This document shows, piece by piece, positions 9,013 through 62,695 of a stretch of 64,000 nucleotides of DNA. Origin of the DNA: a virus; UHGV virus genome UHGV-0057547; one strand, written 5' to 3'. The notes below the pieces were generated by a model. The model did not search any database, was not told the origin of the DNA, and saw only the letters and a program-made list of their open reading frames with translations. The translations under genes and the position numbers were made by a program. The stretch's first letter is position 1. The number at the start of each line of letters is the position of its first letter.

Positions 9013-10155
9013 ATGAACGAATTTGAAAAATTCATGATAATAAATGAAAATAAAAGTTTAAAGAAAGAAATTGAAAATTTAGAAAAAATAATAAAAGGTT
9101 ATGAAAACAATAAATGTGATGAAAGTAATGAAGAAGTTGAAGGAATAGAATGTGCATATGACTATGATACTTCTAAAGAATTTGAAAATCAACTTAAAGA
9201 AATAAGAAGAAAACAAAAAGTGTTAATTAAAAATAAAGAAGCTATAATACATGACATGGAATGGACAGTTCAAGGAAGTGAAGCTAAAGGTAATAAGCTT
9301 ATGAAAGATATATCTAACTTAGCACTTATGAGTTTCAATGATTATTGCGATACATTAATAATTAAATTAAAATATAGTGGAATTGACAAAGTAAAAGACA
9401 ATATTACAAATAAATATAATAAAATAAATAAATTACTTAAATCTTTCTGTACAAGAATATCTGTTGATTTACTTAAATTAAAATATATAGAAGCTGATTT
9501 ACGATGTGGCTGGTTAAGAAAAAAAGAAGAAGAAAAAGAAGAAATTAGAAGAAAAGAAGCTGAAATAAGAGAACAATTAAAATTAGAAGAAGAAATAAAC
9601 AAAGCTAAAGAAAAAATACAATATGAACAAGCACAGTATAATTCTGAGATAGTAAGATTACAAGAACAATTAATTAATGAACAAGGTAATAATAAAGTTA
9701 TAAAGAAACAATTAGCTAAATTAGAAGACAAAATAGCTAAATTAGAAGAAAAGAAAAAAGATGTATTAAATAGACAAATAAATAAAAAGGCTGGTTGGGT
9801 ATATGTAATAAGTAATGATTCATTTGAAGGTAAAGAAGTATACAAAGTGGGAACAACAAGAAGATTAGAACCTTTAACTAGAGTTGCAGAATTATCTAGT
9901 GCTTCTGTTCCATTTAAATTTAAAGTACATTCAATAATATTTAGCGAAGATTGTTATGATTTAGAGTCTACTTTACATAAGGCTTTAGATGACAAACGTT
10001 GGAATTTAGCAAACAAACATAAAGAGTTTTTTGTTTGTAGTCTTGATGAAATAAAAGAAGAAGTATTAAAATATAATCCTACTGCAACATTCATAGATAA
10101 TCCAACTGATGATGAATATGAAATAACTCAACAATTAAGTAAGAAGGTGATTTAA
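9013..10155 (+). CDS. DUF4041-like coiled-coil N-terminus plus C-terminal T5orf172/GIY-YIG-like domain protein
   Basis: C-terminal GWVYVISN...YKVGTT...R......PF..K.H motif pattern; long coiled coil. Confidence 0.5.
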   Translation: MNEFEKFMIINENKSLKKEIENLEKIIKGYENNKCDESNEEVEGIECAYDYDTSKEFENQLKEIRRKQKVLIKNKEAIIHDMEWTVQGSEAKGNKLMKDISNLALMSFNDYCDTLIIKLKYSGIDKVKDNITNKYNKINKLLKSFCTRISVDLLKLKYIEADLRCGWLRKKEEEKEEIRRKEAEIREQLKLEEEINKAKEKIQYEQAQYNSEIVRLQEQLINEQGNNKVIKKQLAKLEDKIAKLEEKKKDVLNRQINKKAGWVYVISNDSFEGKEVYKVGTTRRLEPLTRVAELSSASVPFKFKVHSIIFSEDCYDLESTLHKALDDKRWNLANKHKEFFVCSLDEIKEEVLKYNPTATFIDNPTDDEYEITQQLSKKVI

Positions 10156-31417: not shown

Positions 31418-31696
31418 GTCATATCAAGAAATATGTATGAATTATTTACTCCTTAGAAAAGATAGAGGAAATGTTCAACTTCAAAAAAGTATTCAAGAAA
31501 TTAATAGTAAATTACAAGCTGACTGTAAAATGAAATTATCACAAATAGATAATGATGATGATGACAATGCTTGTTTTGGGAAATTTATAGATAGAATAGA
31601 ATTATATGAACCATGTAATAAAAAGTTACCATTTTTTGAAGATATAGATGGAATAAGACAATACTTAAAACGATGGAAACAAAAAGCCACGACTGT
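31418..31696 (+). CDS. Terminase small subunit-like protein, exon 2
   Basis: Only open frame; phase matches exon 1 (2-nt carry-over); P1 ctgt|at with IGS atatgcag. Confidence 0.4.
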
Positions 31697-32088
31697 ATAG
31701 AAATATGCAGTGGACACAGATTTAATTGCAGGTAATTCCTAAAGCCTTACACCAAAACGGAAGGTGAAAACCTAAACGGCAACGGTACGAAAGTAGAAAA
31801 AACGTAAGGATGGATATAAGGTTAAATCCTAAGTATCCAAACATATTTATATATGTTAAAATGGGTGTTCATGCAGGTAAGATTCTAAGTGATAATTTTA
31901 TATCATATGAATAAACTTCAACGACTAGAATGCAAATTCGTAGGGTGTAAGCGATTGACACTCGAAAAGGTCTGCCCTTAACAGGTAATGCTGAAGGTGA
32001 AGAAATAGTCTAGTCACTCTAGGAAACTAGGTGCTTAGAATTAACTAAGGTTTATAGTGTAGCGACTATAAGTAAATATTAACGTTTG
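31697..32088 (+). mobile_element. ORF-less group I intron (3' boundary 32088 or up to 32110)
   Basis: 5' half nearly identical to 30031-30285; contains caacGACTAg and ATAGTCTAg P7 strands; ends aacgtttg. Confidence 0.55.
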
Positions 32089-32110: not shown

Positions 32111-32259
32111 GAAATTAGCTAAAAATGATGTTTTAGGGGGAGAAGAAGGAATAGAAGATTATGAAGATGTAGATAAAATATACAATGAACAAAATAAGAA
32201 TAATACCGAAGTAGAAAATGAAGTAGAAGATGAAGTAGGTGAGGAAAACAATGACAAGT
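32111..32259 (+). CDS. Terminase small subunit-like protein, exon 3 (acidic C-terminus); start uncertain
   Basis: 53-codon open frame ending in a stop that overlaps the ATG of the next gene; boundary chosen by frame. Confidence 0.3.
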
Positions 32260-32401
32260 AGTCCAAAAGAAAATGTTGAAAAAGAAGAAATACTTTCCGA
32301 TGATGTCATGAAAAGTCCTCATAGAAAAAGAAGGAATTTATCCCAAAGAAAAAAAGATAGATTAAATGAAGGTATGAAAATATGGACTGCATTTTATAGG
32401 T
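32251..32401 (+). CDS. terL: Terminase large subunit, exon A
   Basis: ATG overlapping upstream stop; exon ends ttttatagg-t with P1 pairing to IGS gctta. Confidence 0.5.
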
Positions 32402-32747
32402 TAAATATTTAGCTTATTTTATTAGGTAACTAATAATCTAAACCCTTTGAATTGCTGGAAAGGACTTAGAGCCTATTGAACTACAACGTGACTAGAAATG
32501 GTGAGCGTGAATGTTTAAAAATCAATAGGATTGTTTAATCAGCAGGTAAGATTCTAAATTGCTATAAACAATATGAATAAACTTCAACGACTAGAGTTTA
32601 AACTCGTAGGCTACAAGTTATTGGTAGTCGAAGCGGAGGGCATCCTTTCATAGGATGAAGATATAGTCTGTTCTTATATGAAAATATAAGTAGTTCTTTA
32701 TTTAATAAAGAACAGTATGTATGTAGCGAATACATATGAACATTTAG
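32402..32747 (+). mobile_element. ORF-less group I intron
   Basis: Conserved 5' core (aattgctggaaagg...cagcaggtaagattctaa) directly joined to 3' core (aataaacttcaacgactag...gatatagtctg). Confidence 0.6.
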
Positions 32748-32863
32748 TAAACATCCATAGATTCGCACTGGATTTTTTGGGACTTAATTTATATCCGTTC
32801 CAAATTATATTGCTTTATATGATGAATATAATGTATAGCACTTGCCTAATATGTGCAAGGGGT
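32748..32863 (+). CDS. terL: Terminase large subunit, exon X (LxLxPFQ motif and start of P-loop ..CARG)
   Basis: Open in the phase set by exon A; ends ggggt before a P1/IGS gctcc and P2 hairpin. Confidence 0.5.
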
Positions 32864-34032
32864 AAATAGATATGCTCCATTATATAGAAATATATAATTA
32901 AAAATCAATCAAAATCGGTAAAAGTCTAAGTTTAATATTTACATTTTTTAGGAATATAAGTATAATATATAAAAGGGGTGAGATTAAATGGGTAAAATAA
33001 TAAATAAATATGATAGAATAGGTGAAACATCGATATCAAAAGAAGGATATGAAATGAAAATAATTGAATATATTGATGCAAGACATATTCTAATAGAATT
33101 TCAAGATGAACATAAAACTAGGTTAATGTGTCAATATGGTGACTTTAAATGTAGAAAAAATATTAAAAATCCATATCATCCAGCAGTATATAAAATAGGG
33201 TATTTGGGACAAGGTAAATATAATAAAAAAAATTATCAACGTATATATTGGACATGGAAAGATATGCTGAGAAGATGTTATAGTGAAGAGTACTTAAAAA
33301 GAGAACCTTCTTATAGAGGCTGTTGTGTTTGTGAAGAATGGCATAATTTCCAAAACTTTGCTAAATGGTATGAAGAAAATTATTATGAAGTTGAGAATCA
33401 AAGAATGCATTTAGATAAAGATATACTTGTAAAAATGAATAAAACATATAGTCCACAAACTTGTATATTTGTTCCACAAATAATTAATAGTTTATTTATA
33501 ACATCTAAGGCTATAAGAGGAGAATATCCTATTGGCGTTTCAAGAAAACAGAATAAATTAATTGTTCAAATTAATAAATATGATGAAAATATGAAAAAAT
33601 CAAAATATACAATGGTAAAAAAATTTGAAATAGAAGAAGTAAATGAAGCATTTTTTTGCTATAAAACAGAAAAAGAAAATGAAATAAAGAAAAGAGCCGA
33701 TTTATTTAAAGAATATATTCCAAAAAAATTGTATAATGCATTATATAAATATAAAATTGAAATAACAGATTAAATATGATAATACCGAGGTAAGATAGAA
33801 AATTAAAAAGTTCTATCCACTGTAGAGCATAGAGATTGAACCTTTGTAAGAACTATTATACAATAGTTCTTTTTTAATTGCAAAGAATAAAATATCTCCA
33901 AGAGTGATTGACACCTTACTATTAAGTTAAAGGTGAAAATATATGCCATACTGAGCTAGAATTGACTAGCTGATGAAAATGAGGGAAACCTCCAGAGGTT
34001 AAGATAAAAAACTTAACGTTAATAATGAATAG
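32864..34032 (+). mobile_element. Type-2 (T-family) intron carrying an HNH endonuclease ORF; 3' part is element T1
   Basis: P1 ggggt/gctcc, P2 attatatagaaatatataat, caaaatcggt block, internal promoter, ORF, then about 270-nt T1 element. Confidence 0.5.
32988..33773 (+). CDS. Intron-encoded HNH-family homing endonuclease (Bacillus-phage type: WTW-DML-RRC...CCVCEEW..F..F..W...LDKDIL motif)
   Basis: Diagnostic conserved motif set read directly; own promoter and RBS aaaagggg. Confidence 0.55.
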   Translation: MGKIINKYDRIGETSISKEGYEMKIIEYIDARHILIEFQDEHKTRLMCQYGDFKCRKNIKNPYHPAVYKIGYLGQGKYNKKNYQRIYWTWKDMLRRCYSEEYLKREPSYRGCCVCEEWHNFQNFAKWYEENYYEVENQRMHLDKDILVKMNKTYSPQTCIFVPQIINSLFITSKAIRGEYPIGVSRKQNKLIVQINKYDENMKKSKYTMVKKFEIEEVNEAFFCYKTEKENEIKKRADLFKEYIPKKLYNALYKYKIEITD

Positions 34033-34135
34033 TTATCGAAATCGTATATGACAGCAATATTCCTTTGTTGTAAAGCAATATTATATCCAAATAGTTTAAT
34101 TGTAGTTTCTTGTTCAACTAAGGAGCAAGCGAGAT
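34033..34135 (+). CDS. terL: Terminase large subunit, exon e34 (P-loop ..LSKSYMTAIF.. and LIVVSCSTKEQAR Q-motif)
   Basis: Joins exon X in phase to give ICARGLSKSY Walker A-like loop; ends gcgagat with IGS gtctc. Confidence 0.5.
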
Positions 34136-35567
34136 ATAATGTCTCCTATATTAAGTGATTAGTATAGCAAATCTTTTGAATTGCTGGAAACTCCTAAAGC
34201 TCAATTCACTACAACGTAAGGTTAAATCCTAAGCGTGAATGTTACGAAAGTAGAAAAAAGTAATTGAGATGGTATAAGGTTAAATCCTAAGTACTTTTAC
34301 AATGGACAATCAGCAGGTAAGATTTATATTTATTTTACTTTACTTTTAATAATTAATTTCGTATAATTTAAGTAAATGGAGGTGAAATATTATGGCATGG
34401 AAATATGAAGATGTGAAAAAGTATGTAGAATCATTTGGTTATAAATTAATATCAAAAGAATATAAGACTTGTAAAGATAAACTTCATTTAATGTGTCCTA
34501 ATGAAAGTGATTTTATTGTAAGATTTGATAATTTTAAAAATGCTAAACAACGTTGTAAATGTGATAAATGTAAAGGTAGAAATCCAAGAATGTTTTCTTA
34601 TGAATATGTAAAAGAATACATAGAAAAAGAAGGGTATAAATTAATATCAAAAGAATACAATGGAAATAAAAAACGTATAGAATTAGAATGCCCAAATGGT
34701 CATAAATGGAAAGTAAGATTTACTGATTTTAAAAATGGAAGAAGATGTTATTATTGTTCTTGTTGTTATAAACCTACCATTGGAGAAATTAGAATGAGAT
34801 TATCAAAATATGGTTATACATTGTTATCTGAAGAATATAAAAATGCAAATGAAAAAATTAATGTAAAATGCCCTAATGGTCATAAATATCCTACTACATA
34901 TCATAATTTTGATAATGGTAAAAGATGTCCATACTGTTATAATAAATATAGTAAAGGTGAGTATAGACTTATAAATTTATTTAATAATTATAAAATAAAC
35001 TATAAACATCAATATATTTTTAATGATTGTAGAGATATAAATCCTTTGCCATTTGATTTTTATTTATATGATTATAATTGTTGTGTAGAATTTGATGGAG
35101 AAGGGCATTATGAACCTAGAAATTGGAATGGAGCTTCAGATGAAAAAGCAATAGAAACATATAAAATAACGGTATTACATGATAAAATTAAAACACAATA
35201 TTGTAAGGATAATAGCGTAAAACTCATAAGAATACCATATTGGGAATTTAATAATATAGAAAACATTATTTGTCAAGAATTAAATATTAAAAGAAAACAA
35301 AGAAGAAAAGGTAATAAATTAAAATAAATATGAATAAACTTCAACGACTAAGTATCCTAGTAGTCTAGGTAGAGGAAGAGGTCTTATATTAATAAGATTG
35401 TGATATAGTCTGCTCTCATGCGAAAGCATGAGCAGTTCATAAAAGAACGGATAGAATAGTAACGATATTCTATTGAACATAAGGAATCTTATAAAGGAGA
35501 AGATAGCTAAAGAGCTATGTTCTCAATCGAAAATGTTAAATAGAGAAATTGCTAAAGTAGTCACTGG
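34136..35567 (+). mobile_element. Group I intron carrying a Zn-ribbon/DUF559 homing-endonuclease ORF (3' end approximate)
   Basis: P1 gagat/gtctc, P2 ctatattaagtgattagtatag; conserved 5' and 3' cores flanking the ORF. Confidence 0.55.
34392..35327 (+). CDS. Homing endonuclease, Zn-ribbon repeat modules plus DUF559/Vsr-like PD-(D/E)xK nuclease domain
   Basis: Three modules YEYVKEYIE..GYKLISKEY...CPNGH...F..FKNG.RC; C-terminal PLPFDFYL...VEFDGEGHYE...KLIRIPYWEF. Confidence 0.6.
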   Translation: MAWKYEDVKKYVESFGYKLISKEYKTCKDKLHLMCPNESDFIVRFDNFKNAKQRCKCDKCKGRNPRMFSYEYVKEYIEKEGYKLISKEYNGNKKRIELECPNGHKWKVRFTDFKNGRRCYYCSCCYKPTIGEIRMRLSKYGYTLLSEEYKNANEKINVKCPNGHKYPTTYHNFDNGKRCPYCYNKYSKGEYRLINLFNNYKINYKHQYIFNDCRDINPLPFDFYLYDYNCCVEFDGEGHYEPRNWNGASDEKAIETYKITVLHDKIKTQYCKDNSVKLIRIPYWEFNNIENIICQELNIKRKQRRKGNKLK

Positions 35568-35631
35568 TACTAATGAAACAGTGGTTATCTTTAACAATGG
35601 TAGTACCATTCAAGTTTAATGCTTTGCACAT
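35568..35631 (+). CDS. terL: Terminase large subunit, exon e35 (boundaries approximate)
   Basis: Only open frame; phases fit e34 (1-nt) and e38 (2-nt carry-over); P1 gcacat/gtgtgt. Confidence 0.35.
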
Positions 35632-35877
35632 TGAGTAATTAGTGTGTATAACCGATTGAATTGCTTGTAAATCCTAAAGCTAACTAAACTACAACGTAAC
35701 CTGAAAAGGTAAGCGTGAATGTAGCGAAAGCAGAAAAAATTAGTTAGATGGTATATGGTTAAATCCTAAGTACTTTTACAATGGAAGTCTAGCAGGGAAG
35801 ATTCTAAAATTATTTAAATTAAATATTTGACTTTTAATAATATAAGTTGTATAATATAAATAAATGGAGGTGATAAT

Positions 35878-36834
35878 ATGTCAAAAATAATGTGGGATGA
35901 AAAATCAATAAAAAAATTTGTTGAGCAATATAATCATGAATTCATTGAAATTATAGAATTTAATAACATAAGAAGTTTAATAAAAATTAAATGTAAAAAT
36001 AAAAAACACAAACCATTTGAAATAAAATTTACATCATTTAGACAAACTATGCTAAAAAATGGAAATTCTTGCAAAGAATGTAAAAAAGAAGCAAAAATGT
36101 TAAAAAGAGAAGATGTAGAAAACCTAATTAGAGAAAGAGGACTTATTTGGCTAGAGGGAGAGTATATAAGTAATGATACAAAAAATTTATTAGTATGGTG
36201 TGGAAATATTAATCATGAACCATTTTTAACAAGTCAAAATTATATATTATGTAATAATGGTAATAGTTGCAAAAAATGTGGTATAGAAAATAATGCAAAT
36301 AACAAAAGACTTTCATATGAGTATGTATATAACTATATAAAAAATGAGGGTGATGAACTATTATCAAAAACTTATGTAAACAATTCACAAAATTTAAAAA
36401 TTAAATGTGGTAAATGTAATAATGTATTTGAAACTTCATTTGGGCACTATCAAAATAAAGATAGAAGATGCTTATGTAAAGCTCAATCAAGAGGAGAATA
36501 TGAAATTAAACGAATATTTGATAAATATAATTTAATTGAAAATGTAGATTATGAATGTCAAAAAAAATACGAAGGATTAATTGGGGTTGGTGGTAGAAAA
36601 CTTTCTTATGATTTCTATATCAATAATACATTAATAGAATATCAAGGTTCTTATCATGATGGAACTGCTAGAAAACAAACAGATGAAGGATATGAGATAC
36701 AAAAGGAACATGATAAAAGAAAAAAAGATTATGCTAAAAATAATAACATTAATTTATTAGAGATATGGTATTGGGACTTTAATAATATAGAAAATATACT
36801 TATAGAAAATTTTAATTTAAATAATAATGAATAA
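35878..36834 (+). CDS. Homing endonuclease, Zn-ribbon repeats plus DUF559/Vsr-like domain
   Basis: Same modular architecture as 34392..35327; C-terminal LSYDFYI...IEYQGSYHD...NLLEIWYWDF. Confidence 0.55.
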   Translation: MSKIMWDEKSIKKFVEQYNHEFIEIIEFNNIRSLIKIKCKNKKHKPFEIKFTSFRQTMLKNGNSCKECKKEAKMLKREDVENLIRERGLIWLEGEYISNDTKNLLVWCGNINHEPFLTSQNYILCNNGNSCKKCGIENNANNKRLSYEYVYNYIKNEGDELLSKTYVNNSQNLKIKCGKCNNVFETSFGHYQNKDRRCLCKAQSRGEYEIKRIFDKYNLIENVDYECQKKYEGLIGVGGRKLSYDFYINNTLIEYQGSYHDGTARKQTDEGYEIQKEHDKRKKDYAKNNNINLLEIWYWDFNNIENILIENFNLNNNE

Positions 36835-37086
36835 CCTTCAACGAACAAGTATCCTAGTAGTCTAGGTAGTGGTCGGTATCCTTAGTAAAGGATAATGATA
36901 TGTTCTGCTCTCATGTGAAAGCATGAGCAGTTTATGTGATTAATTAAAATTCACAAATAAACGGTATAAGGTATAACGAACCTTATATGAACACAAATGC
37001 AGTAAACGCTTCTCAAAATACAAGAGGTAAATTTTTCATATCACTTTACATTTTTTAATAATTAGAGTATAATATAAACAAAGGGG

Positions 37087-37956
37087 GTGATTGAATTGAA
37101 ATGGACTAAGGATATGGAGCAATACTTAATTGATAATTATAATAAATTAACTATTGAAGAATTAGCTAAAAATATAGGAGTAACAAAATCCTCAATAATA
37201 AATAAAGCTTTTTCATTAAAAATAACAAATAATGTTAAAAATAAAGATAGAGGAAATATTAATATATTTAAAAATATAAATTCAGAAGAAAGTGCTTATT
37301 GGTTAGGATTTATATATGCTGATGGTTATATAGTTAAAAGTGAAAATGATAAAAAACATCATAATTATGAATTAGGTATAGAACTTCAAGAATCTGATAT
37401 TTCTCATTTGAAAAAATTTAATAAAATATTTAATGATTATTATAAAATAAAAACAAGAATCAGAAAAATGGATTCATTGGATATTTTAAATGGAAATGAA
37501 GTTTCAAATAGATTAAATAAAACTTGTTTGATAAGAATATATAATAAAGAAATAGTTAATGATTTAATAAAAAATAATATTGTTCAAAATAAAACTAATT
37601 CAGATATATTTCCTATTATAGATGATGACAATATGTTTTTACATTTTTTAAGAGGATATATTGATGGCGATGGTTCTTATGTTGTTGATAGTAAAAATAG
37701 ATACATAATATCAATTCAAGGTAATAATAAAAAATGTTTTGAATTTATATCTAATAAGTTATTAACAAGTTTTAATATTAATTCATATATAACAAAAGAT
37801 AAAACAGGTTGGAAATTAAATATAAGAAAAAAAGATGATGTTTTAAAATTAATAGATTTAATGTTTAATAATTCAAATATTTATTTAGATAGAAAATATG
37901 AGAAAGTAAAAGATATGAAAAAAGCCGTCTTTAATAGAAATATTAAAGATAATTAG
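37087..37956 (+). CDS. LAGLIDADG homing endonuclease (double-motif, single-chain)
   Basis: Two LAGLIDADG motifs: LGFIYADGYI and LRGYIDGDGS; GTG start after RBS aaaggggg. Confidence 0.7.
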   Translation: MIELKWTKDMEQYLIDNYNKLTIEELAKNIGVTKSSIINKAFSLKITNNVKNKDRGNINIFKNINSEESAYWLGFIYADGYIVKSENDKKHHNYELGIELQESDISHLKKFNKIFNDYYKIKTRIRKMDSLDILNGNEVSNRLNKTCLIRIYNKEIVNDLIKNNIVQNKTNSDIFPIIDDDNMFLHFLRGYIDGDGSYVVDSKNRYIISIQGNNKKCFEFISNKLLTSFNINSYITKDKTGWKLNIRKKDDVLKLIDLMFNNSNIYLDRKYEKVKDMKKAVFNRNIKDN

Positions 37957-38280
37957 AGAACAAAATCGGTCATAGTAAATCGTAAGATTAAGCTGATAAG
38001 AGAGCCTAAGTCCTTATAGGATATGGTAATACCGAGGTAAGATAGAAAATTAAAAAGTTCTATCCACCGTAACGCATAGAGATTGAACCTTTGTGAGAAC
38101 TATTATACAATAGTTCTTTTTTAATTACAAAGAATAAAATATCTCCAAGAGTGTTCTCCACCTTATCATTAAGTTGAAGGTGAAAATATATGCTGGACTG
38201 GGTATGAATTGACATACCATAATGCGAGGAAACTCCTAGAACTAGAGGATAAAAAGCCTTTAGGATAACAAAACGTTAAG

Positions 38281-38325
38281 ATGCCATGTACTCGTGGTTG
38301 ATGAGTATAGAATGATACAAGGAGT
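38281..38325 (+). CDS. terL: Terminase large subunit, exon e38 (Walker B ..CHVLVVDEYRMIQG)
   Basis: Open frame; ends ggagt paired to IGS gctcc of the next intron. Confidence 0.45.
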
Positions 38326-39865
38326 AATATATAGCTCCCTATGTTTATAAAAAGCATAGAAAAACTCTTTAATTGCTGGAAACTCCTAAAGTCCTATAAA
38401 CTACAACATGATTAGAAATAATGAGTGTGAATGTTACGAAAGTAGAAAAAATTATAGGAATGGTATATGGTTAAATCCTAAGTACTTTTACAATGGACAA
38501 TCAGCAGGTAAGATTTATATTTATTTTACTTTACTTTTAATAATTAATTTTGTATAATTTAAGTAAATGGAGGTGATAAAATGTTAAAATATAATAATGA
38601 TTATATTATCAATTATATAAATGAAAATTATAAAAATTTTAAAATAGTAAGTATAGATGGTAATGGAAAGGAAGCTATTGTAACTTTATGGTGTGGCGTT
38701 AGTGGTCATAAACATATACAATGCACATTTGCTAATCTTTTATATAAAGATAGTTTTCACTGTAGAGAATGTAAAAAAGATGATAAGATAAACGAAATAA
38801 AAAAGATTATAGGTGATGAATATCAAATAATCTCAATAGATTATATTAGTAATGATTGGATAAGAAGTAGAGCTATATTATGGTGTGGAATAGAAGGACA
38901 TGAATATATTGATGTATCTTTTAAATCAATAATAAATGGAAATATTATTGGATGTAAATTATGTAGAAAAAATAAACATATATTAAAAATAAAAGAAAAT
39001 GTAGAAAAAGTTAATAAAAAATTAATAGAAGTAAAAAAATATAATGAAAAAGATTATCACAAATCAAGAATAATAGTATCTTGTGGTAATGAAAAACATG
39101 AATTAATAGAGACTTCTTTAAATAAAATTATAAATTCAAACGTTAAATGTAAGGATTGCATAAAAGAAGATAATATTAATAAAATGATGCTATATATAAA
39201 TTCTACTCAATACAAATTTAATAAAATTGTAAAATATTGTGAATCAGATTATATAAAAAGTATGGTAGAAATAACATGTCCAAAAGATGAAACCCACATA
39301 TTTACAATGAGATTTTCTAATTTTAAATATGAAGGTAAAAGATGTCCTCATTGTGGTATGACTTATGGTGAACAAGAAGTTGCAAATGTATTAAAAAGAT
39401 ACAATATAAAATATAAATTTCAATATAAATATAAAGATTGTAGATTTATAAATCCTCTTCCTTTTGATTTTTATTTACCTGATTATAACATATTAATTGA
39501 ATACGATGGTAAACAACATTATGAATCAGTAGATTTATTTGGTGGAGAAAAAGGTTTTAAATATACAAAACAAAATGATGGAATAAAAAATCAATACTGT
39601 AAGAATAATAATATAAAATTAATAAGGATACCATATTGGTGTTTTAATAATATAGAAGAAATATTAATTAAAGAATTAAAAGTAAACATAAATAAATATG
39701 AATAAACTTCAACGACTAGAACGTAAGTTCGTAGGGTGTAAGTGATTGACACTCGAAATGGGAGTTACCTAATAATAGGTAGTGATATAGTCTAGTCTCA
39801 TATGAAAGTATGAGCAGTTCATAAGAGAACGTACATAACGTAGCGAATTATGTAGAATATAACGG
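38326..39865 (+). mobile_element. Group I intron carrying a Zn-ribbon/DUF559 homing-endonuclease ORF
   Basis: P1 ggagt/gctcc, P2 ctatgtttataaaaagcatag, conserved cores, P7 GACTA/TAGTC; ends ...gaatataacgg. Confidence 0.6.
38581..39705 (+). CDS. Homing endonuclease, Zn-ribbon repeats plus DUF559/Vsr-like domain
   Basis: Four Cys-pair modules; C-terminal PLPFDFYLPDYNILIEYDGKQHYE...NNIKLIRIPYWCF. Confidence 0.6.
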   Translation: MLKYNNDYIINYINENYKNFKIVSIDGNGKEAIVTLWCGVSGHKHIQCTFANLLYKDSFHCRECKKDDKINEIKKIIGDEYQIISIDYISNDWIRSRAILWCGIEGHEYIDVSFKSIINGNIIGCKLCRKNKHILKIKENVEKVNKKLIEVKKYNEKDYHKSRIIVSCGNEKHELIETSLNKIINSNVKCKDCIKEDNINKMMLYINSTQYKFNKIVKYCESDYIKSMVEITCPKDETHIFTMRFSNFKYEGKRCPHCGMTYGEQEVANVLKRYNIKYKFQYKYKDCRFINPLPFDFYLPDYNILIEYDGKQHYESVDLFGGEKGFKYTKQNDGIKNQYCKNNNIKLIRIPYWCFNNIEEILIKELKVNINKYE

Positions 39866-40021
39866 TTTTGATACATTAAACTCAGTATTAAGACCATTCT
39901 TAAACTGTGTTAGAATACCAAAATTTAAGAATAGAGATGATGGAAAATATGCAGATTATCCATCAGAGGAAAACCAAGAGATTTATTTGAGCAGTGCATT
40001 AAAACTAGTGCAAACTATGGT
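39866..40021 (+). CDS. terL: Terminase large subunit, exon e39
   Basis: 52-codon open frame in AT-rich DNA; phases consistent with both flanking exons. Confidence 0.45.
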
Positions 40022-40341
40022 GAAATGTAGATAGCTATAGTTGAGTATCAATCAAAATCGGTCATATGTATAGTGATATACATGGTAAGAAAGACTAAGT
40101 GTTAATTTAACATAAGTTGATACCGAGGTAAGTTAAGGAACTAAAAAGCCTTATCCACTGTAACGCATAGAGATTGAACCTTTGCAAGAACTATTATATA
40201 ATAGTTCTTTTTTAATTGCAAAGAATAAAATATCTCCAAGAGTGATTGACACACGCTACATTTATTGTGTGAAAATATATGCTGAACTTATAGGAAACTA
40301 TAAGAACTAAAGGATAAAAAGCCTTTAGGATAACAATTTGG
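40022..40341 (+). mobile_element. Standalone ORF-less T-family intron (element T3); 5' boundary 40022 or 40033
   Basis: P1 atggt/gctat, caaaatcggtcatatg block, about 300 nt, shares covarying hairpins with T1, T2 and T4; both boundary choices give a consistent terL frame. Confidence 0.45.
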
Positions 40342-41428
40342 GTTCGAGAATCATTGGAGTTATGACCTCTATTCTTCCCATGTTAAGAAAATGTTAGCAG
40401 GTGATGATTATTTTGTATGTAATTTACCTTATCAATTATCTGCTTATCATGGAATATTAACTAAAAAAAGAATACAAGATATTTTATCAGATGAGAATAT
40501 GTCGGAAATATCATTTATGATGGAATTTGAAGCATTATTTTATTCTGATAAAGATACTAGTTATTTTAAATCAAGTGACATATTACCTTGTAGAACATTG
40601 GAATATGCATGGTATCCTCCAACACCTGAGGAATATTATAGAAATAAAAATAAAGAGAAAAAGAGTTATCATTTGAAGAAATTAAATGATAAAGAACTTA
40701 GAATAATTAGTTGTGATATAGCCTTAATGAATAGTAAAAATGGACATGACAACGATAATGCCGTATTTACTTTTATAAGAAGTATTCCAAAGAATCAAAA
40801 TTATATATCACAAGTTTTATGGCAGGAAACCTATGATGGTTGTACAGCTAAACAATTAGCATTAAATATAAAAAGATTATATTTTGACACTCAAAGTGAT
40901 TATATAGTACTAGATACTGCCGGTAATGGGATATCTGTGTTAGATGAGTTAGGTGAATATACAACAGATGTAGAAAGAGGAATAGTTTATCCTCCATTGA
41001 AAGCAATGAATGATGAAAAATATGAAGAACGTTGTGGTTATTCTGAGGCACAAAAATCTATATTTTGTGTTAATGGTAACTCAAAGTTTAACCACGAAAT
41101 TGCAGTAACCCTTAAAACAGCATTTCAAAATAAAACCATTAGATTATTAAAAACACAATTTGAAGCAGATGACTTTATAGAAGGATATCATAAGATGTCT
41201 CCTAAAGAACAAGCTGACAAATTAATGCCTTATATTCAAACTTCTTTAATGCAAGATGAAATAACTCAATTGGAATATGAAATAAAAGATTCTTATATTA
41301 AACTTTATGAAACCACAGGTAAACGTAAGGATAGATATTCAAGTTTAGCTTATGGTAATTATTTTATAAGAGAAAGAGAAAAAAAATTAAAGAAAAAGAA
41401 AAAAGGTGGATTAGCTAATCTATGGTAG
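40342..41428 (+). CDS. terL: Terminase large subunit, final exon (C-terminal RNase H-like nuclease domain)
   Basis: RIISCDIALMNS..GHDNDNA, LDTAGNGIS and DRYSSLAYG catalytic-Asp regions typical of TerL nuclease domain. Confidence 0.65.
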
Positions 41429-61630: not shown

Positions 61631-62695
61631 TAATTGATTTGCCGTTTATATTAGAAATAATATAAATTATTAGAGGGCAAAATCGGTGAAGACTAAATAT
61701 TTTAATTTATTTACTTTTAATAAAAAATATGGTATAATAATATAAAATAGGAGGGGATATAATGAGAAGATTGAGTTATGAATATGTAAAAGAGTATATA
61801 GAAAATTTTGGTTATAAATTATTATCAAAAGAATATAAAAACAATAAAACTGAATTAGAAATACAATGTAATGATTGTGGGAATATATTCCATATGAGAT
61901 TTAACAATTTTAAAGATGGTAAACATAGATGTGAATGTAAGAGCAAACCATTAGTTTTGACATATGAATATGTTAAAAATTATATTGAATCATGTGGATA
62001 TAAATTATTATCAAAAGAATATAAAAATAATGCAACCTATTTATTGGTTTGGTGTGGAAATCCTAATCACAAACCTTATAAAGTTAAATTTAATAATTTT
62101 AAAGATTGTAATAGTAGATGTCCTGAATGTAATACAACTTCAAAAGGTGAAGAAAAAATAAAAGAAATTCTAATAAAATATAATATAAAATTTAATCAAC
62201 AATATTTATTTAATGATTGTAGAAATACAAGACCACTTCCATTTGATTTTTATTTACCACAGTATAATATTACAATAGAATATGATGGGAGACAACATTA
62301 TAAATTAGATTGTTTTAATATGAATTTATTAGATTTAATGAATTTGAAATATAATGATAATAAAAAAACACAATATTGCAATAATAATAATATAAAACTT
62401 ATAAGAATACCATATTGGGATTTTAATAATATAGAAAAAATACTTAAAAAAGAATTAAAAGTAAATTGAATAAAGTACAAGTTAATACCGAGATAACTTA
62501 TTAGATTACGAAAAGGCTAATAAGTATTGTAGAGCATAGAGGATGAATAAATATAACTCCTCCAAGAGTGTCCTCCATCCTAACGTAAAGACGAGGATGA
62601 AAATATATGCCATACTGAATTGGAATAGACCAATTGATGAAAATGAGGGAAACCTCCAGAGCATAAGATAAAAAGCTTATGGATAATAACAATAG
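61631..62695 (+). mobile_element. Type-2 (T-family) intron carrying a Zn-ribbon/DUF559 endonuclease ORF; 3' part is element T4
   Basis: P2 tttatattagaaataatataaa, caaaatcggtgaagactaa block, internal promoter, ORF, then T4 with covarying hairpins. Confidence 0.5.
61762..62469 (+). CDS. Homing endonuclease, Zn-ribbon repeats plus DUF559/Vsr-like domain (shortest paralog)
   Basis: PLPFDFYLPQYNITIEYDGRQHY...NNIKLIRIPYWDF. Confidence 0.55.
   Translation: MRRLSYEYVKEYIENFGYKLLSKEYKNNKTELEIQCNDCGNIFHMRFNNFKDGKHRCECKSKPLVLTYEYVKNYIESCGYKLLSKEYKNNATYLLVWCGNPNHKPYKVKFNNFKDCNSRCPECNTTSKGEEKIKEILIKYNIKFNQQYLFNDCRNTRPLPFDFYLPQYNITIEYDGRQHYKLDCFNMNLLDLMNLKYNDNKKTQYCNNNNIKLIRIPYWDFNNIEKILKKELKVN

Follow-up and report, generated by a model that had tools for sequence, protein, structure and literature searches.

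For phage genes there are earlier descriptions of group I introns in tandem, of small internal exons and of exon skipping. In the Bastillevirinae phages multiple group I introns interrupt terL and pol, terL being split by two or three of them, and the intron nucleases include members of phrog_559, a family to which a VSR-endonuclease fold (CATH 3.40.960.10) is assigned (PMC11878797). By cDNA sequencing, a small exon between two introns was found in rNDPL of phiNIT1 and exon skipping in TerL of SIOphi (PMC11878797). Staphylococcus phage Twort also carries several introns per gene, and the ribozyme cores of its nrdE-I1 and nrdE-I2 (AF485080) and orf142 introns are homologous to those described here. 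Our subject is a 64,000-nucleotide (nt) stretch of the virus genome UHGV-0057547 (below, the window, to which all positions refer unless a relative is named), from an uncultured SPbeta/phiCD211-like phage of ~200 kb. Its large terminase gene terL, of the SPbeta YonF / phiCD211 type, is split into pieces, as tblastn with the phiCD211 and SPbeta TerL proteins shows. As in the Bastillevirinae, several group I introns and phrog_559 nucleases are involved; whereas the Bastillevirinae terL genes have two or three introns, terL of the window has seven (I1 to I7), as judged by inferred splicing, with exons as small as 29 and 49 nt. A first-pass annotation had treated positions 35632-38280 as one composite intervening sequence with two endonuclease genes. 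We consider it highly probable that this interval consists of two independent tandem group I introns, I4 and I5, each with its own endonuclease gene and with a 29-nt exon between them. The arrangement is a further example of the phenomena documented above.

The 29-nt exon of terL and the introns around it

Splicing terL in silico at the seven inferred junctions (Table 1) gives a coding sequence of 1812 nt and 603 aa with no stop codons, and none of the eight exons is broken or out of frame once the introns are removed. Using the approximate spliced TerL as a query, we found many uninterrupted homologues (~70% identity, 595-603 aa), and these locate the critical segment. Exon 4 encodes NLIKEKIAKELCSQSKMLNREIAKVVTGTNETVVIFNNGSTIQ plus the first base of an Ala codon, and exon 5 encodes LRCHVLVVDEYRMIQG, i.e. 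Walker B. Across the point where I4 and I5 are inserted the homologues read NGSTIQAINASQNTRGLRCHVLVVDEY, and their alignment gives ...NGSTIQAINASQNTRG[LM]RCHVLVVDEYRMI..., locally NGSTIQAINASQNTRG[LM]RCHVLVVDEY. The exon at 37000-37028, CAGTAAACGCTTCTCAAAATACAAGAGGT, encodes (A)VNASQNTRG directly before Walker B; this decapeptide corresponds to AINASQNTRG of the homologues, where 14 sequences agree without exception on A, N, A, S, N, R and G. Note that in L007-L010, close relatives that are ~97% identical, exon 4 runs straight into the 29 nt and these into exon 5 (...ACCATTCAAGCAGTAAATGCTTCTCAAAATACAAGAGGTTTGCGTTGTCACGTA...), and neither intron is present. Joining exon 5 straight to the true end of exon 4 was tried as a candidate and rejected, as it gives a frameshift and immediate stops (...STIQVKMPCTRG followed by two stop codons). 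The 29-nt segment would thus act as 3' exon for I4 and as 5' exon for I5, the mature mRNA would read ...NGSTIQ-AVNASQNTRG-LRCHVLVVDEY..., and the spliced nucleotide junctions, marked by slashes, would be ...ACCATTCAAG/CAGTAAACGCTTCTCAAAATACAAGAGGT/TTAAGATGCC...

The second line of evidence comes from intron occupancy. The last terL exon is found at 98% identity in 170-210 kb contigs of several metagenomes; the exons of these relatives are ~97% identical to those of the window and their intron content varies. L004 lacks I4 and has a 263-nt I5 without an open reading frame (ORF), L005 and L011 (the same allele) have an ORF-bearing I4 of 1402 nt and no I5, L013 has an ORF-less I4, within which its contig begins, and no I5, and L006 has ORF-less copies of both (355 and 263 nt). 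Together with the window, which has both, and L007-L010, every present/absent combination of I4 and I5 is found. Since each unit occurs without the other and the coding exon is kept, the two are independent insertions and not a composite intron or a twintron. The ORF-less copies are consistent with cycles of gain and loss of the endonuclease genes.

We therefore picture terL as the site of two group I introns, both complete and mobile, whose insertion points are 29 bp apart and each of which would splice separately. At co-infection each endonuclease would presumably cut the matching intron-less allele and drive its own intron in, and we propose that this is why all the combinations occur among the relatives. 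Self-splicing, promoter use, endonuclease activity and homing are all predictions from sequence. A natural population with every occupancy state, loss of endonuclease genes included, is good material for the study of homing dynamics, and it also suits the study of how ribozymes manage with exons as short as 23-49 nt.

At first sight, two recognisable terL exons with a pair of ribozyme-like halves and a pair of endonuclease genes between them could mean that about 35632-38280 is removed as a unit, or as a nested twintron, so that exon 4 is joined to Walker B. There is a likeness to twintrons in that recognisable exons flank two closely spaced ribozyme units with two ORFs, but twintrons are nested whereas here a coding exon separates the units, and these are present or absent independently. 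The join by which the first-pass annotation saw Walker B restored, NALHICHVLVVDEY, is open only in the +1 frame relative to NNGSTIQ of exon 4, a frame that is closed upstream, and the NALHI of this join (NALHI + CHVLVVDEY) is I4 sequence. Excision as one unit, which the annotation held to be necessary, would thus leave a frame error; it would also discard the 29-nt exon, which is conserved in every intron-free homologue and kept in relatives without both introns, and each half is found on its own. We regard such an excision as hardly conceivable. The annotation had itself named an in-frame exon within 36990-37047 as the finding that would speak against two endonucleases in one intervening sequence; a conserved exon of this kind lies at 37000-37028, and the introns are therefore ordinary tandem introns. 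Two introns with a tiny exon had been one of the three options offered and is the one that stands, the single intron and the twintron being set aside, and by the intron-less alleles the outer limits of the stretch move to 35615-38275. The apparent oddity of one intron with two endonucleases is thereby removed.

A different possibility is that there are two introns and that splicing from the I4 5' site to the I5 3' site predominates, the mini-exon being often lost and TerL throttled. For SIOphi TerL, such skipping between neighbouring group I introns is reported to give the dominant product in vitro (PMC11878797), and an exon of 29 nt gives little pairing for P10 and P1. In Twort orf142, exon skipping has reportedly been seen likewise. 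However, skipping shifts the frame and brings an immediate stop, therefore it is not a productive route for the essential gene terL, and we consider predominant skipping unlikely. It is also very improbable that the inserts do not splice, terL being a pseudogene in decay or the contig being mis-assembled. The high intron load (7378 of 9190 nt, 80% of the gene span) and the non-canonical appearance of the type-1 5' junctions might suggest this, but inferred splicing joins eight intact exons in frame, the ribozyme cores are conserved, and the same introns occupy the same sites in several independent 170-210 kb contigs from different samples with ~97% identical exons.

Several points weigh against two tandem introns as proposed here. 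The splicing of I4 and I5 is inferred from sequence, and the ORF-less copies of both score below the RF00028 gathering score of 50. The 5' junction of I4 is non-canonical, with an exon that ends in G and a wobble U that is the first intron base; either the P1 or splice-site chemistry of I4 is unusual, or the mRNA is one base off the prediction from intron-less alleles. Finally, Q stands for a possibly catalytic D in the IEYDG motif of the I4 endonuclease, which may be inactive.

Ribozymes and endonuclease genes of I4 and I5

The first-pass annotation was right in placing a type-1 ribozyme around the first ORF and a second core, its element T2, after the second ORF. I4 looks like a type-1 group I intron whose endonuclease gene lies in a peripheral loop (P6 region) between the 5' core and the 3' half. 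It is paralogous to I3, I6 and I1, with which its 5' and 3' halves align; I1 scores 92.8 bits against Rfam RF00028, above the gathering score. ORF-less natural copies were scanned with Rfam in place of the ORF-bearing introns: the L006 copy of I4 scores 43.5 bits (E=1e-9) and that of I5 27.2 bits (E=9e-5), against a gathering score of 50. The 5' core of I4 is 79-90% identical to intron cores of Staphylococcus, Enterococcus and Clostridium phages. At the 3' end the intron terminates in omega-G 36999, and its tail is homologous to those of I1 and the Twort nrdE introns, where the omega-G is confirmed.

The two endonuclease genes do belong to unrelated families, as had been claimed, with matches to phrog_559 in I4 and to LAGLIDADG families in I5. 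The I4 product has Cys-rich N-terminal repeats and a C-terminal nuclease domain of the ...DFY...IEYxG...IPYW type, and its paralogues are located in I3 and I6. The earlier label was Zn-ribbon/DUF559; Pfam gives a weak Zn-ribbon match only, and no DUF559 match was found at E<=0.1. A sequence profile search of the PDB found no relative of this nuclease. At residues ~252-258 (36630-36650) the protein reads IEYQG, where the paralogues have VEFDG (I3) and IEYDG (I6).

I5 is a type-2 group I intron with its LAGLIDADG gene within the P1 loop. Its junctions are canonical, as U37028 (-1) pairs with G37924 and the terminal omega-G is G38275. The pairing of the internal guide sequence with the exon is also present in the ORF-less L004 and L006 copies and in the Rfam P1 assignment, and the type-2 paralogues have P1 helices that covary with their own exons (I2 GGGGU/GCUCC, I7 UGCAU/GUGCA), again with canonical U(-1) and omega-G. 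The guide sequence of I5 coincides with the last codons of the LAGLIDADG ORF; translation of this end and formation of P1 could interfere with each other. Remnants of these last codons are retained in the ORF-less I5 derivative.

The second ORF of the first-pass annotation is confirmed as a LAGLIDADG gene by Pfam matches above cut-off (PF14528, 54.2 bits, cut-off 22.5; PF14527, 30.7 bits, cut-off 23.2) and by two motifs, WLGFIYADGY and FLRGYIDGDGSY. The protein probably starts at TTG 37096, judging from a putative Shine-Dalgarno sequence GGGGGTG (37083-37089) spaced as in I2. Like I-AniI and I-CreI it belongs to the LAGLIDADG intron homing endonucleases, in this case two-motif and group I intron-encoded; among solved structures it gives a weak match only (I-AniI, E ~0.01), and it differs from the I-AniI/I-CreI type by an extra N-terminal helix-turn-helix-like region and by the placement of its gene inside the P1 loop, where it overlaps the guide. 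This gene had been called promoter-driven. An 11/12 sigma-70-like match does lie directly upstream of it and another directly upstream of the I4 endonuclease gene, the two best such matches in the region; by their consensus both are putative promoters.

The ribozyme of I2 is homologous to that of I5, yet its endonuclease is of phrog_953, HNH-type, and sits in another loop (P5 region); homologous ribozymes have therefore been invaded independently by endonuclease genes.

The 5' junctions of the type-1 introns

A U at the insertion site is a near-universal need of group I introns. In the P1 design that the type-1 introns share, four exon bases are followed by an invariant U; beyond the loop come an invariant G and the complement of the exon bases. 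Over 11 distinct sites this helix covaries with the exon (90.9% paired, score 0.731, reached in 0 of 500 shuffles), and register 0 is far above registers +-1. Nevertheless, at all nine sites that can be checked (I3, I4, I6, the yonG-, portal-, yonD- and yonB-like genes and two others) the intron-less alleles place the insertion boundary one nt 5' of the invariant P1 wobble U. The inserted DNA at these nine sites is of the form U...G, and the last exon base is G (A at I3). By the intron-less alleles the 5' splice site of I4 would therefore not fall right after the P1 U, where that of a group I intron is expected, although the U·G pair itself is strongly supported by the covariation.

If the cuts were canonical, following the U at one end and the terminal G at the other, one extra base would be left, and I3 would then read AGA UAA. 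Keeping the U exonic needs a non-G last intron base, and Tyr or Val then replaces a residue conserved among the homologues at 6 of the 9 sites. Splice sites assigned to I3 and I4 by structure alone (canonical U(-1) and omega-G) were rejected, as they break the frame or add a residue, and the intron-less alleles decided. A metagenome scan for alternative spliced I4 junctions gave six matches, all unrelated chance matches. For the Silviavirus tail-lysin intron the full-length matches listed span ~690-800 bp in two pieces, indicating that the intron is present, and the Staphylococcus phage records give no usable annotated join coordinates. The P1 of Twort nrdE-I1, an intron studied experimentally, has the same design as that of I4, in which U·G closes a short helix with the exon beside the loop and P2 follows, but its wobble U is the last exon base, whereas in I4 and its paralogues it is the first inserted base; the deposited Twort NrdE protein (AAM00816.1) is reproduced only by a join with an exonic U. 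A literature search found no report of non-U 5' splice sites.

It is thus conceivable, though we give it slightly less than an even chance, that I3, I4, I6 and at least six more type-1 introns, these lying in the yonG-, portal-, yonD- and yonB-like genes, splice one nt 5' of their own invariant wobble U. If this were true, the P1 U·G pair would be wholly intron-encoded and the upstream exon would be free to end in G or A. The type-1 lineage would be freed from the U at its insertion site, which could help explain the many sites it has colonised, and an offset that is real in RNA would be at odds with the rule of insertion after U for group I introns.

Group I introns across the window

The window contains 16 group I cores, 12 type-1-like and four type-2, all on the + strand, and the interrupted genes are terL and the yonG-, portal-, yonD- and yonB-like structural genes. 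Rfam applied to the window found only I1 and a weak intron upstream, and missed the ORF-bearing introns and the type-2 family. Both ribozyme families have relatives in phages of Staphylococcus, Enterococcus, Clostridioides and Streptococcus. Seven terL introns and 16 cores in 64 kb are, to our knowledge, among the densest intron loads of phage genes; a literature search found no report of intron-dense SPbeta-like phages, and a genome scan of the GTDB representative genomes found no host or prophage relative. The exact exon map can be used to annotate a terminase gene that comes out of gene callers in pieces.

Table 1. Exons, introns and intron parts of terL, and related features in the window and in its relatives
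Feature	Position	Strand	Description and evidence
E1	32239-32401	+	terL exon
I1	32402-32747	+	terL intron
E2	32748-32863	+	terL exon
I2	32864-34032	+	terL intron
E3	34033-34134	+	terL exon
I3	34135-35484	+	terL intron
E4	35485-35614	+	terL exon, 130 nt; junctions from intron-less alleles, aligned uninterrupted homologues, tblastn
I4	35615-36999	+	terL intron, 1385 nt
I4 P1	35611-35626	+	helix of exon CAAG (35611-35614) plus U35615 with G35621 plus CUU(U)G; loop UUAAU
I4 5' ribozyme core (P3-P8 region)	35654-35806	+	nhmmer E=1e-45; Rfam alignment of ORF-less homologue
I4 promoter-like site	35827-35855	+	TTGACT-17-TATAAT, 11/12 consensus positions; before endonuclease gene
I4 homing-endonuclease gene	35878-36834	+	318 aa; phrog_559 E=8e-42, phrog_9084 'homing endonuclease' E=2e-14
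I4 3' ribozyme half	36835-36999	+	J6/7-P7, P9, tail UGAACACAAAUG; aligned with I3 and I6; Rfam alignment
Mini-exon	37000-37028	+	terL exon, 29 nt
I5	37029-38275	+	terL intron, 1247 nt
I5 promoter-like site	37045-37073	+	TTTACA-17-TATAAT, 11/12 consensus positions; before LAGLIDADG gene
LAGLIDADG homing-endonuclease gene	37087-37956	+	PF14528 E=1.7e-14; phrog_4645 E=4e-38
I5 internal guide sequence	37924-37931	+	GCC(G)UCUU; pairs with exon AAGAGGU (37022-37028)
I5 ribozyme core	38014-38274	+	nhmmer type-2 profile E=3e-71; aligned with I2, I7 and L004 copy
E5	38276-38324	+	terL exon, 49 nt; tblastn, homologue alignment, intron-less alleles
I6	38325-39864	+	terL intron
E6	39865-39999	+	terL exon
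I7	40000-40340	+	terL intron
E7	40341-41428	+	terL exon
P1 of I3	34131-34146		type-1 P1
P1 of I6	38321-38338		type-1 P1
P1 of other type-1 sites	just upstream of cores 30046, 42405, 45137, 47788, 53291, 54689		
Type-1-like cores	30046, 31719, 32445, 34174, 35654, 38366, 42405, 45137, 47788, 53291, 54689, 62751	+	
Type-2 cores	33774-34030, 38014-38274, 40106-40340, 62475-62689	+	
ORF-less derivatives of I4/I5	L006 6811-7165 and 7195-7457; L004 8318-8580; L013 1-249		same sites as I4/I5
Additional type-2 intron	L005 ~9120-9425; L006 from 7481; L011		junctions GTGGT/AGTTATCTGCC...CTTTG/AGATGAG

Two further introns deserve mention. A group I intron at 31687-32033, in the yonG-like gene just upstream of terL (RF00028, 45.7 bits, E=3e-9), is present in all the relatives examined. 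Some of the relatives carry an additional ORF-less type-2 intron 23 nt 3' of the I5 site, within the Walker B codons (Table 1), and L006, which has it, therefore has successive mini-exons of 29 and 23 nt.

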